Part shown: positions 59,910 through 64,000 of the stretch, piece by piece | Layout: each line of letters starts with the position of its first letter | Numbering within the stretch: the stretch's first letter is position 1 | Sequence record: PQ666540 | DNA: 64,000 nt | Source: Shigella phage sb2 | Direction: 5' to 3' (one strand) | The notes under the pieces: generated by a model | What the model was told of the DNA's origin: nothing | Seen by the model: only the letters and a program-made list of their open reading frames with translations | Database searches by the model: none | Made by a program: the position numbers and the translations under genes

Positions 59910-59939
59910 ATTATAACACAACACGAGGGACTTGTAAAC
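59910..59939 (-). promoter_or_regulatory. early (sigma70-type) promoter: -35 GTTTACA, 17-nt spacer, -10 TATAAT
   Basis: Minus strand reads GTTTACAAGTCCCTCGTGTTGTGTTATAAT; 32 nt upstream of the 59878 ATG. Confidence 0.65.
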
Positions 59940-61996
59940 TACATCTTGAACTTTTTAGACATTCCGTTGATGTTAACCAAAGAAGCCAAGATTTGAGAAA
60001 CTTCGTTTTCCTCTTCTTTTGATTCTTCTACAAGGAATTGATTAAACCCAGCCATTGGACGAACTTCACCAGTTTCCATTAGATGATCGCCATCATATAC
60101 CGATTCTTCTAATTGTTCAGAAGGAGGAACGATTGTGCCTTCGATTAGATACTTATTATAAGCAGTTTCTTTCATCATGTACGTGCTCACTTTATTAATC
60201 TTCAGCAAAATTCCACGCGGTAGAATAACTTCAGCTTCTGATGGAAATCCTGATAAATGACCTGGAACGATAACTTTGATTCGCTCAGCCCCTTTAATTA
60301 CCATACCTACACTAGTTTCAGCATCTTCATTAGCATATGCAGAATGACTACCCATATGCATTAAATCTTCAGCATCAACAGAACCTTCTCCTTCACCAGA
60401 AAATACTGCGCCGGAATCATCTAGAGCCATATAGTTTTTACCATGCTCACCGAAGATATTTGGTTTAAGCGATGTTGATACGAAGTTCTTGAAATAGAAC
60501 ATTTTATTTTCAATATTATGACGTAAAGTTTTAAAAGTAACTTCTTGACCACGATAAAGCGTAGTTCCCGGAGGAAGAACTGATCCTTTGGCGAATGCAG
60601 AATCCAGCGTCTCGATGTGTTTAATAGCTCGTTCCATATATTCTTCACGGGTAGAATCCGGTTTACCTAAAAGGAACGAGTTCATTTCAACATATGAATC
60701 TGCACAATAATCTTCAATTACATCAGACTCAGCCTGAGTTAATCCTTTTGGAGTTACTTCGGTGCTTGCGTATTCATATGCCTGAGCAGCAGATTCATTA
60801 ATCAATTTATAAATGCCATTCATGACAAATTGAATAATAGCTACCTTTTCGTCTGGTGCGGCTTTAGAACCTTTAACTAAATCATTGATAATTTTCTTAA
60901 TAACATCAAAGCTATTAGAAATATTAATGTCAGCGAGATCGCTCAAAATTTTATCGGTTTTATAATCAAAGAATTCTTTATTCTTTAAATATTCTTGAGA
61001 ACCTTGATGTGTTATATCGCTCTGCAGTCTGATAGACGGATCACGTAAACGTGCATTGGCCAATGCAATATGATTTCGGAAGCTTTCTAGTTCATAATCG
61101 TTAGATTTAAAACGAGAAGCACTTCTCATACCACCGATAGCTCCTTTGCCGAAGTTTGAACCAATCTGAATAACGCCAGAGTTCATTGGTCCTTCTGCTT
61201 TATATACCGGAACTTTAGATTCAAACTCTTGATATTTCTTAGCGGCGAAGCTATCACCCTGAAGTGAAGCATCGACAGTAGAATATTGAGCTTGTGCTGC
61301 TAATCGACGACTAATTTTAGTTTTCTGAATAACAGCTTGATCCGTGCGCTTATCATTTTCTAAAGCAATAGAAGCAGCAACAGCAACAGCTTTAGGAACA
61401 GCATTACCTGTTTTAACATCTACATAAACATCACCAACCTTTGATTCAACTTTTGTGAATAACTCAGTTGAAATAGGAGGTACACCTGGAATGTCTTCTA
61501 AATTGGCATTTTTACGGTAAACCATAATATATGCATACTTTTTATCGTAATCCCAGATTTCCTTTAAAAGAACATATCGACCTGCTCCTTTAGTACGTAC
61601 TAAACGGTCAGCAATAACTTGCATTTGACGAGCTGCGCCATTTGTTTTACTTTTTAGTACGCGGAATAGGCATGCATCAATTTTATACTGTTTCATTGTT
61701 TGAAGAGCAGTATCAAAAACAGCATTAATGACACCAATTGGATTTCCACCCAAGTTTTTAAGTTTAACTAATGATAGTTTCTCATTAACACCTATCATTA
61801 CGATATGCATCATTTTATCGCCTGGCTTAACGTTTTTATTTGTATCACCGCCAGAGGTGTATGTACAAAATCTAAATCCAGGAAGCACGCTTTCTTCACC
61901 GGCTTGAATAGCAAAAATTTGAGGTATTTTATGCTTAGGATTTAATTTAACAACCGGCGCCGAAGCGCCGTCAAATAATTCTGTAATAAGTTCCAT
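59939..61996 (-). CDS. Alt-family ADP-ribosyltransferase paralogue (685 aa)
   Basis: N-terminus MELITELFD (CTS-like); C-terminal ART motifs (LYRGQE, FVSTSL, SEAEVILPRG); paralogous to the adjacent Alt gene. Confidence 0.8.
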   Translation of the reverse strand: MELITELFDGASAPVVKLNPKHKIPQIFAIQAGEESVLPGFRFCTYTSGGDTNKNVKPGDKMMHIVMIGVNEKLSLVKLKNLGGNPIGVINAVFDTALQTMKQYKIDACLFRVLKSKTNGAARQMQVIADRLVRTKGAGRYVLLKEIWDYDKKYAYIMVYRKNANLEDIPGVPPISTELFTKVESKVGDVYVDVKTGNAVPKAVAVAASIALENDKRTDQAVIQKTKISRRLAAQAQYSTVDASLQGDSFAAKKYQEFESKVPVYKAEGPMNSGVIQIGSNFGKGAIGGMRSASRFKSNDYELESFRNHIALANARLRDPSIRLQSDITHQGSQEYLKNKEFFDYKTDKILSDLADINISNSFDVIKKIINDLVKGSKAAPDEKVAIIQFVMNGIYKLINESAAQAYEYASTEVTPKGLTQAESDVIEDYCADSYVEMNSFLLGKPDSTREEYMERAIKHIETLDSAFAKGSVLPPGTTLYRGQEVTFKTLRHNIENKMFYFKNFVSTSLKPNIFGEHGKNYMALDDSGAVFSGEGEGSVDAEDLMHMGSHSAYANEDAETSVGMVIKGAERIKVIVPGHLSGFPSEAEVILPRGILLKINKVSTYMMKETAYNKYLIEGTIVPPSEQLEESVYDGDHLMETGEVRPMAGFNQFLVEESKEEENEVSQILASLVNINGMSKKFKM

Positions 61997-61999
61997 GAT

Positions 62000-64000
62000 T
62001 TATCCTTGAACGAACTTGTAAGGCATGTTTGTAATATCTATGCAAGACGCAATAATTCCAATAGATGATTCGACTTTCTGTTTAACATTTGATGAAACAA
62101 ATGATGCAAAATCAACTCTGTCTTCTATTTCAATATCACCTGTCATTGCAACTACTTCACCAGTTTCCATTAGACGGTCACCGTCATAAATTACTGATTC
62201 GGTGAGTTCTTCCGTAGTCATAACTTCAGCTTGAATAAGCTTGTTGTTAGTTTTAGCTGTTCCATCATTGTAAGATGCATCGGTTATTTTATTAACTTTG
62301 ACCATTAATCCACGTGGTAAAATGACTTCCATTTCATTTGAAGGCGCTAAACTTCCACCTGGTAAAACAACGTTGACTTTATCAGCCCCAGTAATAACCC
62401 ATCCAATTCCAACTAAATTATCGCTAGAATTAACAAGTCCTTCATCGTTTTTATCGATAGAAATGTTTAGACGCTTTTCGTCTGGTAAAACACCCACAGC
62501 TGAATCAGTCATCCAAGTACCAAAAATGTTTGGATATAATGATGTTGATACAAAATTTCTAAAATAAAAAACTCGATTTTTTACCAATGCTTCATATATT
62601 GAAGGTAACATTCGCTGTGAACGATATAAAGTAATACCTTTTGGCAGTCGATCACCATTTTTAAAGGCTGAATCTAAATTATCGATGGCTTGTTCTATTT
62701 CTGGTGCTGTTAAAATACTTGTACGCTCATCTGGATTATATAATCCCAAAAGAGCATTATTCATGTCTACATATCCTGAACCTACGTATTCACGAATTCC
62801 GCGTTTTTGTGCCGGTGTGTATTTAGATGAATCTTTATTTTCGACTATAGAATGCAATGACCATCCAACGGTAAGAGCATATCCACGTAATTCTCTTCGA
62901 ATAATCTTTGTTTTTATTGCATTCCAAGAATTTTGCACTAACTCATTCGCAGCATCTTGATTTAAATGCGAATGCTTGTTAATATTTCTTTCTAACCAAG
63001 CACCTTTATATTTTTCTAAAGTATCATCAACTATAGAAGCAATAGTTTCTAAAGTTTTTATTGAAGTAATAGATTCTTTTCGTAATCTTTCTAAAGCTTT
63101 ATTTTTTATTTCTGCATTAACATCAGATTCTTTATCTTCAGGAATTATAGAAGCTTCTCTGAATGCCATTCCAGCTGTAACACTATTAAGAGCATTCTCT
63201 AATGCAAATCCTGAAGTAGAAATAACAGTTAATTCGTTAGCATCAGAAATTAAAGGCGCGTCAGCGGGTTTATTTAATTCTGCTGCTGAAGCCTCAAATT
63301 TTTGAAACATTGGTCTTTCAAATCTAGAAGATTCCAATGACTGACTTTGCGCAATTGCTCTACGGGAAATTTTAACTTTAACTATTACAGCTTGATCAGA
63401 ACGTTTATCGTTTTCTTGCGCAATAGATGCTGCAATTGCCTCATTTTTAGTTACTTGAGCTCCAGTATCTTTATTGATATAAACATCACCGACCTTCGAT
63501 TCAACTTTAGTAAAGAGCTCGGTACTAATTTCAGGAACTCCTGGAATGTCTTCTAATGATACATTTTTGCGATGTATAAGAATATATGCATACTTTTTAT
63601 CGTAATCCCAGAGTTCCTTAAGAAGGACGTATCTGCCACCTGAACGACTGCGGATAAGTCTATCAGCAATAAGTTGAATTTGACGAGCTTGACCAGCAGT
63701 TTTAGACTTAAGAATACGGAGCATACAGGCATCAATTTTATACTGACGCATCGTCTGCATCGCAACAGTAAAAACTGAATTGATGTAATTAATTGGGCTT
63801 GGACCGAGACCTTTTAATTTAGCAATTGAGCCTTTAGCAGTTAATGTAAAAGGAACAATATGCATCATTTTATCGCCCATCTTTAAATCGCGATTAGTAT
63901 CACCTCCAGATGTATAGGTACATAAACGAAAGCCTGGCTGTTCAATTGCGTCATCAACATGAACTGAAAAAATTTGTGGTATTTTCTTCTTTGGATTTAA
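62000..64000 (-). CDS. alt: Alt ADP-ribosyltransferase (5' end beyond window; first about 40 codons missing)
   Basis: Frame stays open to the window edge upstream of MGDKMMHIV; ART motifs LYRSQR, FVSTSL, NEMEVILPRG. Confidence 0.85.
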   Translation of the reverse strand, partial: LNPKKKIPQIFSVHVDDAIEQPGFRLCTYTSGGDTNRDLKMGDKMMHIVPFTLTAKGSIAKLKGLGPSPINYINSVFTVAMQTMRQYKIDACMLRILKSKTAGQARQIQLIADRLIRSRSGGRYVLLKELWDYDKKYAYILIHRKNVSLEDIPGVPEISTELFTKVESKVGDVYINKDTGAQVTKNEAIAASIAQENDKRSDQAVIVKVKISRRAIAQSQSLESSRFERPMFQKFEASAAELNKPADAPLISDANELTVISTSGFALENALNSVTAGMAFREASIIPEDKESDVNAEIKNKALERLRKESITSIKTLETIASIVDDTLEKYKGAWLERNINKHSHLNQDAANELVQNSWNAIKTKIIRRELRGYALTVGWSLHSIVENKDSSKYTPAQKRGIREYVGSGYVDMNNALLGLYNPDERTSILTAPEIEQAIDNLDSAFKNGDRLPKGITLYRSQRMLPSIYEALVKNRVFYFRNFVSTSLYPNIFGTWMTDSAVGVLPDEKRLNISIDKNDEGLVNSSDNLVGIGWVITGADKVNVVLPGGSLAPSNEMEVILPRGLMVKVNKITDASYNDGTAKTNNKLIQAEVMTTEELTESVIYDGDRLMETGEVVAMTGDIEIEDRVDFASFVSSNVKQKVESSIGIIASCIDITNMPYKFVQG

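Follow-up and report, generated by a model that had tools for sequence, protein, structure and literature searches.

Why do T-even phages keep two genes for Alt-type ADP-ribosyltransferases (ARTs) side by side, and does the second of them encode an enzyme with a task of its own? The question is raised by the end of a 64,000-nucleotide stretch of Shigella phage sb2 (sequence record PQ666540; hereafter the window), where alt and, directly downstream of it, alt2 lie on the minus strand. Alt is the textbook capsid-carried enzyme, injected for the takeover of the host. In T4 it is a non-essential internal head protein of about 40 copies that ADP-ribosylates Arg265 of the RNA polymerase alpha subunit and other host proteins (PMC2988021). 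Two enzymes of this kind are encoded by most natural T4-like phages, and the one that laboratory T4 has lost is Alt2. From the sequence comparisons and structure predictions described here we estimate a probability of about 70% that Alt2 is a functional second enzyme of the T-even Alt family, which would be produced late, processed by gp21, injected, and directed at substrates of its own. The features of the two genes are as follows.

62000..64000, minus strand: alt, encoding a T4-type Alt, with its 5' end cut by the window edge and 666 codons plus the stop codon in the window (open frame, PF03496, identity to T4 Alt)
62621..62623, minus strand: catalytic R of alt
62540..62548, minus strand: S-T-S of alt
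62327..62335, minus strand: E-M-E of alt
62198..62206, minus strand: gp21 site LTE of alt
62003..62007, minus strand: Shine-Dalgarno sequence AAGGA of alt2, within the last alt codons (sequence inspection)
59939..61996, minus strand: alt2, encoding 685 aa, 75.8 kDa (open reading frame (ORF) starting MELITELFD, 41% identity to Alt, Tequatrovirus orthologues)
61979..61996, minus strand: N-terminal propeptide MELITE of alt2, a capsid-targeting sequence that ends with the predicted gp21 site ITE-6 (same as the first T4 Alt residues)
61292..61978, minus strand: conserved basic alpha/beta N-domain of alt2, residues 7-235, isoelectric point 9.7, PF26846 'Tevenvirinae_ADPRT'
60752..61291, minus strand: divergent all-helical middle of alt2, residues 236-415 (identity, predicted helical)
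60104..60751, minus strand: ART catalytic domain of alt2, residues 416-631 (PF03496 over residues 416-620)
60551..60553, minus strand: R482 of alt2
60470..60478, minus strand: S507-T-S509 of alt2
60230..60247, minus strand: ARTT loop F584-P-S-E587-A-E589 of alt2
60104..60112, minus strand: predicted gp21 site LEE-631 of alt2
59939..60103, minus strand: acidic C-terminal propeptide of alt2, residues 632-685 plus stop, which begins SVYDGDHLMETGEV and ends MSKKFKM (aligned to the T4 Alt propeptide)

The last 4.5 kb of the window were 98.7% identical to the alt locus of the Tequatrovirus Shigella phage pSs-1 and matched 527 records of T4-like phages. The order of the ORFs, with gp29-gp48-gp54 on the plus strand followed by alt.-3, alt2 and alt on the minus strand, was conserved in pSs-1, T6, RB27 and T4, and the position of the pair is the one typical of T-even Alt genes, which lie between gene 54/alt.-3 and alt.1/gene 30 and run counter to the baseplate genes. 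Since the upstream frame shared 96% amino acid identity with T4 Alt and 100% with pSs-1 Alt, it represents alt itself; the full gene encodes 684 aa in pSs-1, and the alt start codon lies 55 nt beyond the end of the window. The original prediction, made from the letters of the window without database searches, had described this gene as one of '626+ aa'. The frame is indeed open to the window edge, but 626 counts from an internal ATG, and 666 codons lie within the window.

The pair of tandem Alt-family genes is real. As had been predicted, the two are adjacent minus-strand paralogues, which was borne out by the ORFs, by 41% identity over ~700 columns (BLASTP, E 1e-155, far past chance) and by common family assignments: both proteins matched PF03496 (ADPrib_exo_Tox; 3.8e-20 for Alt2 and 4.3e-34 for Alt), and both belong to PHROG 802 'Alt-like RNA polymerase ADP-ribosyltransferase' (e-255 and e-254, respectively). 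The shared motifs quoted in the original prediction (PGFR.CTYTSGGDTN, GDKMMHIV, QYKIDAC, GRYVLLKE.WDYDKKYAYI, LYRSQR/LYRGQE, FVSTSL and EVILPRG) were all found again. In addition, PF26846 (Tevenvirinae_ADPRT), the N-domain model of the Alt family, is precomputed on Alt2 homologues and on the hybrid genes discussed below. The PDB held no sequence relative of full-length Alt2 at E 0.01 or better, and no NCBIfam model matched Alt2. The identity between the paralogues is distributed unevenly: it reached 67-68% in the N-domain, 10-17% in the middle region (residues 236-415), 17-19% in the loop between S-T-S and ExE (PN loop, residues 516-563), which is longer in Alt2, and 36-42% in the remaining ART domain. 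The divergent centre that had been pointed out earlier does exist, but it comprises ~180-230 residues, namely the middle region plus the PN loop, rather than 300.

The residues R482, S507, S509, E587 and E589 of Alt2 were invariant in an alignment of 22 sequences from three genera, and the R, S and ExE residues aligned with those of T4 Alt, ModA and ModB, so that the claim of an intact R-S-E set in the second copy held at the level of alignment. These intact catalytic residues point to an ADP-ribosyltransferase function of Alt2. An AlphaFold2 model of Alt2 (mean predicted local distance difference test (pLDDT) 73) places a helical region between an N-domain of alpha/beta fold and the ART domain. 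Foldseek matched the ART part to Certhrax and, at E 1e-6 to 1e-4, to Vis, CDTa, C3, VIP2 and iota toxin. The ARTT loop that precedes and includes the ExE motif reads G-F-P-S-E-A-E in Alt2 and is paired by HMMER with GGFASEKE of VIP2 and PGYAGEYE of CDTa. Position -3 relative to the first catalytic Glu is F or Y throughout the Alt2 clade, and an aromatic residue is absent from this position in the six T4- and T6-type Alt sequences and in SP18 altb. In C3-like and binary toxins this aromatic residue of the ARTT loop contributes to substrate recognition. Alt2 proteins thus have, as a clade, their own conserved type of helical middle, of PN loop and of ARTT loop. On this basis we infer that the substrate set of Alt2 probably differs from that of Alt, as the original prediction had also proposed for the second paralogue.

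The signals for processing resemble those of T4 Alt, in which gp21 was found by mass spectrometry to cut at ITE-6 and at LTE-619, the latter cut removing a 63-residue C-terminal propeptide and leaving a mature protein of 68.2 kDa (PMC5694885). Our mapping of cleavage sites reproduced this mass. Alt2 begins with MELITE, identical to the start of T4 Alt, in agreement with the earlier reading of MELITELFD as a capsid-targeting start, and its LEE-631 aligned to LTE-619, a C-terminal gp21 site that the original prediction had not spotted. The pattern [LI]xE was present at both aligned positions in 7 of the 8 proteins checked from three genera, the exception being SP18 alta, which has no C-terminal region. 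E631 was invariant in both of our alignments and E6 in one of them, with more than 90% conservation in the other, and the sequence YDGDxLMETGE that follows the C-terminal cut is nearly invariant between the paralogues. The predicted mature Alt2 would thus comprise residues 7-631 and have a mass of 69.0 kDa. Packaging of Alt2 into the head appears well supported at the sequence level, and we infer that the protein is injected as well.

Only 3 nt separate the alt stop codon from the alt2 ATG, which is preceded by the Shine-Dalgarno sequence AAGGA, and no terminator or promoter was found between the two genes. In pSs-1 a hairpin terminator followed by a late-promoter box TATAAATA lies ~25 nt upstream of alt, at a position whose equivalent is beyond the window edge. 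Because of the 3-nt spacing, the lack of any such element between the genes and the TATAAATA box upstream of alt in pSs-1, alt2 is most likely co-transcribed late together with alt. A separate late promoter for alt2 was considered and rejected, as TATAAATA does not occur on the minus strand across 59.5-64 kb.

Taken together, the most likely sequence of events would be as follows. Alt2 would be transcribed late with alt from a promoter just upstream of alt and translated from its own Shine-Dalgarno sequence, and MELITE and the conserved basic N-domain would bring the protein into the prohead core. There, gp21 would trim it after Glu6 and Glu631, giving rise to an internal head protein of ~69 kDa that would be ejected into the cell alongside the DNA and, using NAD+, would mono-ADP-ribosylate arginines of host proteins by means of R482, S507-T-S509 and E587-x-E589.

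The evolutionary record of alt2 is that of a maintained gene. Among five Tequatrovirus orthologues (pSs-1, T6, RB27, SH7 and PYps32T), protein identity was 98-100%, with synonymous distances (dS) of up to ~0.2 and ratios of nonsynonymous to synonymous distances (dN/dS, omega) of 0.03-0.05. Every domain was constrained when considered separately (omega 0.01-0.13); the ART domain gave values of 0.03-0.04, and the middle region, the most relaxed part, was nevertheless constrained as well (0.08-0.13). On these grounds alt2 is almost certainly a functional gene. At 90% nucleotide identity or more, its middle region was present in ~400 phage records, T6 and RB27 included, and the genus commonly carries alt and alt2 in tandem, with T4 as an exception caused by deletion. 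Two alt genes in a row are likewise found in Dhakavirus and in Gaprivervirus, where they are called alta and altb in SP18. In Dhakavirus, the gene at the alt2 position shared 50% identity with Alt2 but 34% with Alt, and its upstream neighbor showed the reverse; the duplication is therefore older than the split of these genera. Likewise, Alt2 shared 44% identity in the middle region and 59% in the ART domain with dhaeg_63, compared with 15% and 38%, respectively, with Alt, and the identity of its middle region to the Dhakavirus positional orthologues was 43-46%. By its downstream tandem position, the type of its middle region and ART domain and the aromatic ARTT residue at -3, the window gene belongs to the Alt2 sub-clade.

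What became of alt2 in T4 can be read from two small genes, alt.-1 and alt.-2 (NP_049810 and NP_049809), which in the T4 record are explained as an ancient duplication of the beginning of alt. Both were 89-90% identical at the amino acid level and 97% at the nucleotide level to the first ~116 codons of alt2, and their similarity to alt was far lower. Moreover, PHROGs 23015 and 15247 matched residues 1-56 (e-40) and 62-117 (e-38) of Alt2 much better than they matched Alt. A blastn comparison of T4 with the window gave two blocks at 97% identity whose overlap is a 9-bp repeat, ACTTTTTAG, and delimited the following segment.

59950..61657, unstranded: segment between two copies of ACTTTTTAG (59950..59958 and 61649..61657), 1,699 bp of which are missing in T4 (blastn against T4)

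Relative to the alt2 gene of the window, T4 thus differs by the loss of 1 nt in an A-run, which shifts the frame, and by the 1,699-bp deletion between the 9-bp repeats. Judged from these sequences, alt.-1/alt.-2 is the remnant of a recently truncated full-length alt2 and not a partial duplication of alt. The deletion junction was present in 91 records of the phage collection, including T4 itself and many T4 isolates.

The two halves of the Alt proteins have had different histories. Within one genome the N-domains of the paralogues were 66-68% identical, in Tequatrovirus and Dhakavirus alike, whereas between these two genera they were 41-46% identical regardless of paralogue type. Values across genera were generally 38-47%, except for the N-domain of SP18 alta, which was 65-66% identical to both Dhakavirus copies, with just 43% between alta and altb. 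In contrast to the N-domains, the identities of the middle region and the ART domain follow the paralogue type: they amounted to 10-17% and 36-42%, respectively, between Alt and Alt2, and to 36-65% and 64-83% between Alt and dhaeg_62. Non-synonymous distances showed the same discordance, with the N-domain sorted by lineage and the effector half by paralogue type. The simplest reading of these sequence data is that a lineage-specific delivery domain is combined with exchangeable effector halves. A recent gene conversion as the cause of the conserved N-terminus was rejected, since the paralogues have reached saturation at synonymous sites (pS 0.57-0.66); an older homogenization of the N-domain, after the genera had split, is likely.

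Within Tequatrovirus, two allelic types of Alt were observed, the T4 type, to which the Alt of the window belongs, and the T6 type. Their N-domains are identical (dN 0.00, dS 0.19), whereas the downstream part has diverged (dN 0.39, dS 1.21), with 33% identity in the middle region and ~71-76% in the ART domain. The effector half of T6-type Alt is nearer to that of Dhakavirus alt (65% in the middle region, 83% in the ART domain), and this likeness indicates that effector modules have been exchanged. Carried further, these patterns allow the tentative view that the alt locus is a cassette system, in which a head-delivery N-domain is homogenized by recombination, effector halves move between T-even genera, and Alt2 is a distinct injected enzyme with non-Alt substrates, possibly a component of host defence, that would have escaped notice for decades because the model phage T4 deleted it. 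We give this view a chance clearly below even.

Four hybrid genes joining an Alt-type N-terminus to an Alt2-type C-terminus were encountered in metagenome and SRA assemblies. Each of them is 100% Alt-type as far as a breakpoint of its own within the N-domain and Alt2-type from there on. The breakpoints coincide with the longest exact matches common to the paralogues (17-22 nt), which have no 31-mer in common. On two long metagenomic contigs the hybrid is the sole alt gene, located between alt.1 and alt.-3 with both flanks present; the two other contigs end just after the gene, and the hybrid junction was found in no cultured phage. The hybrids may represent real unequal crossovers or assembly chimeras.

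Fold searches with the N-domain gave weak matches, and a sequence search among 1.84 billion representative proteins yielded 68 clusters; of ten that were examined, seven carry an ART domain and none carries another recognized domain. When residues 1-420 of Alt2 were compared with predicted viral structures (BFVD) by Foldseek, a similar fold was found over 170-250 residues (E 1e-6 to 1e-3) in large uncharacterized proteins of Erwinia, Dickeya, Shigella MK-13, Vibrio and Agrobacterium Atu_ph07 phages, some of them annotated with Zeta-toxin, ParB/Sulfiredoxin (Srx) or deaminase domains. The N-domain as a general carrier of non-ART effectors, at which this similarity in fold hints, was not adopted because the sequence search, with ten of its clusters examined, did not support it. 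Similarly, no MuF domain was matched in Alt2, which places the protein outside the polyvalent or MuF-fused packaged effectors.

How do other explanations of alt2 compare with that of an injected enzyme that has its own substrates? A decaying duplicate or an artefact of annotation or assembly has next to no probability, for although the T4 locus (alt.-1 plus alt.-2) is a pseudogene remnant, the gene in the window is refuted as such by its full-length open frame, its ~400 records, a dN/dS of ~0.04 and its intact catalytic and processing residues. It is also very improbable that Alt2 acts in the producing cell or as a structural or scaffolding part of the head instead of being injected as an active enzyme. 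Such a role would fit the N-domain, whose function is unassigned, and the C-terminal propeptide, as both are more conserved than the catalytic part, but the catalytic residues are all invariant, purifying selection on the ART domain is strong (omega 0.03-0.04), and the targeting and cleavage motifs match those of the injected enzyme Alt. A stronger rival, which we nonetheless regard as unlikely, is a redundant back-up of Alt that has the same targets, such as Arg265 of RNA polymerase alpha, and is kept for dosage. The two proteins do have the family, the N-domain, the processing motifs and the operon in common, T4 lost alt2 without an obvious defect, and Alt itself is non-essential. Redundancy is, however, difficult to reconcile with the retention of both copies since before the Tequatrovirus/Dhakavirus split and with the separate identities of the effector halves, which are 12-17% (middle) and 36-39% (ART) identical between the types compared with 44% and 59% within the Alt2 type. 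Furthermore, the ARTT loops are clade-specific, and the transposon-fitness classes of the two genes in phage Bas37 are unlike: in the Bas37 library of the HIDEN-SEQ preprint, Alt2 (bas37_0032) had insertions in 116 of 164 TA sites and was classed as 'Intermediate', and Alt in 164 of 179 sites and was classed as 'Non-essential'. This one transposon screen suggests that Alt2 adds more fitness on Escherichia coli K-12 than Alt.

A further possibility concerns the purpose of the enzyme: Alt2 could serve mainly as an anti-defence effector that ADP-ribosylates and so disables an immune or toxin-antitoxin component of natural isolates, rather than to reprogram transcription. Protection against Mokosh type I is conferred by T4 Alt and, less well, by the T6-type Alt of Bas37 (HIDEN-SEQ preprint), from which it follows that effector modules of the Alt family can vary in their anti-defence spectrum, and an action of Alt on MazF has likewise been reported. 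The swapping of effector halves behind a constant N-domain is the pattern expected of arms-race cargo, and alt2 was lost in the laboratory-adapted T4 lineage. Against this proposal, Alt2 was not flagged as conditionally essential for any host or defence system that the HIDEN-SEQ preprint reports; we consider the proposal possible, with a chance clearly below even. Several points also weigh against Alt2 as a functional, injected second enzyme. The late promoter was seen only in a relative, pSs-1, outside the window; the structural models are of moderate confidence, with pLDDT values below 50 in the PN loop and the C-terminal propeptide; and our literature search found no virion proteomics, enzymology, biochemistry or target data on Alt2. 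The lower density of transposon insertions in alt2 could reflect polar effects or toxic effects of truncated proteins, and Alt2 is not among the conditionally essential Bas37 genes highlighted on clinical isolates or against Mokosh (HIDEN-SEQ preprint). Finally, T4 and 90 other records carry the deletion, and alt2 must therefore be dispensable at least on laboratory hosts.

The gene pair and its interpretation are already known, and the window represents one more instance of them. Alt2 has been annotated under the names 'Alt2', 'alt.-2', 'alt_2' or 'altb' in T6, RB27, Bas37, SHFML-11, 6phi13, fPS-65, JS98 and SP18; the label is 'alt.-2' in RB27, and bas37_0032 of the BASEL phage Bas37 is 'ADP-ribosyltransferase Alt2' with 2,058 nt as here. 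The Tequatrovirus entries for Alt2 are the same gene, with 98-100% amino acid identity and the same length of 2,058 nt. In many genomes RefSeq labels both genes 'Alt-like RNA polymerase ADP-ribosyltransferase'. Paralogous alt duplications were described earlier for T4 (alt.-1/alt.-2) and, as a full-length copy, for phage 44RR (Nolan et al., 2006; PMC1524935), and a 2026 paper on phage 6phi13 reported two paralogues at 43% identity and proposed functional divergence with an expanded target range (PMC13600099). As the original prediction arrived at the interpretation of the latter paper, our results are a confirmation of it and not a discovery. What is added here is that T4 alt.-1/alt.-2 is a remnant of alt2, and that the N-domain tracks the phage lineage and the effector half the paralogue type. 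The substrates of Alt2 could reveal another step of host takeover or of anti-defence.

Among known systems, T4 Alt (gpAlt, NP_049811) is closest to Alt2, sharing the capsid-targeting sequence, the basic N-domain, a helical region, the ART domain and the C-terminal propeptide as well as R-S-ExE, both gp21 sites, the locus and the operon, but it differs in its shorter PN loop, its divergent middle and the absence of the aromatic ARTT residue (F584 in Alt2). T4 alt.-1 and alt.-2, unlike Alt2, are fragments with PHROG families of their own. ModA and ModB fall into the same ART clade, and their R, S and ExE residues align with those of Alt2; however, they are early, non-packaged proteins of ~200 aa without N-domain, capsid-targeting sequence or propeptides, and only 15-19% identical to Alt2. 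VIP2, CDTa, iota toxin Ia, C3 and Vis (PF03496) have the ART fold in common with Alt2, and the loops G-F-A-S-E-K-E of VIP2 and G-Y-A-G-E-Y-E of CDTa match its ARTT loop, but these proteins are 14-20% identical to Alt2 and are secreted binary toxins that are not delivered by a phage head. Small basic non-enzymatic cargo proteins of phage heads enter the head as Alt2 would, by a short N-terminal targeting sequence that is cut by gp21; they are hypervariable, have anti-defence roles and have no domain in common with Alt2.

Directly after the alt2 stop codon, the locus continues with the following features.

59910..59938, minus strand: early-type promoter (G)TTTACA-17-TATAAT of the alt.-3 homologue (11 of 12 consensus positions, TG extension)
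59588..59878, minus strand: alt.-3 homologue, 96 aa, DUF5498 (PF17602 at 1.4e-64; position as T4 alt.-3)
59562..59583, unstranded: bidirectional hairpin terminator between alt.-3 (minus strand) and gene 54 (plus strand)

The alt.-3 homologue thus has an early-type promoter of its own and a hairpin end that it shares with the converging gene 54, and with these elements it would be expressed separately from the late alt-alt2 pair. In the Bas37 transposon data, its orthologue bas37_0031 showed a depletion of insertions in one comparison of conditions (log2 fold change -2.70, q 0.02).

Elsewhere in the window, an unbroken cluster of ten tRNA genes (Gln, Leu, Gly, Pro, Ser, Thr, Met/Ile (CAT), Tyr, Asn and Arg) extends over 9542..10373 on the minus strand. 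T4 has eight tRNA genes, and Tyr and Asn would then be extra here. The tail sheath gene (gp18 homologue; 35739..37718, plus strand) is colinear with its relatives and contains two in-frame stop codons, both of them single-base differences from Ec_MI-02: TAA for GAA at codon 128 (36120..36122) and TGA for TGC at codon 608 (37560..37562). None of the ten tRNAs of the window proved to be a suppressor, and the stops in this essential gene could reflect sequencing error, a defective genome or a nonsense mutant. Between the sheath and tail tube genes lies a Cys-rich ORF of 217 aa with a TTG start (37723..38376, plus strand), which has no Pfam match. It is present, annotated as hypothetical, in 47 of 463 matching phage records and looks like an optional inserted gene, possibly for an endonuclease.

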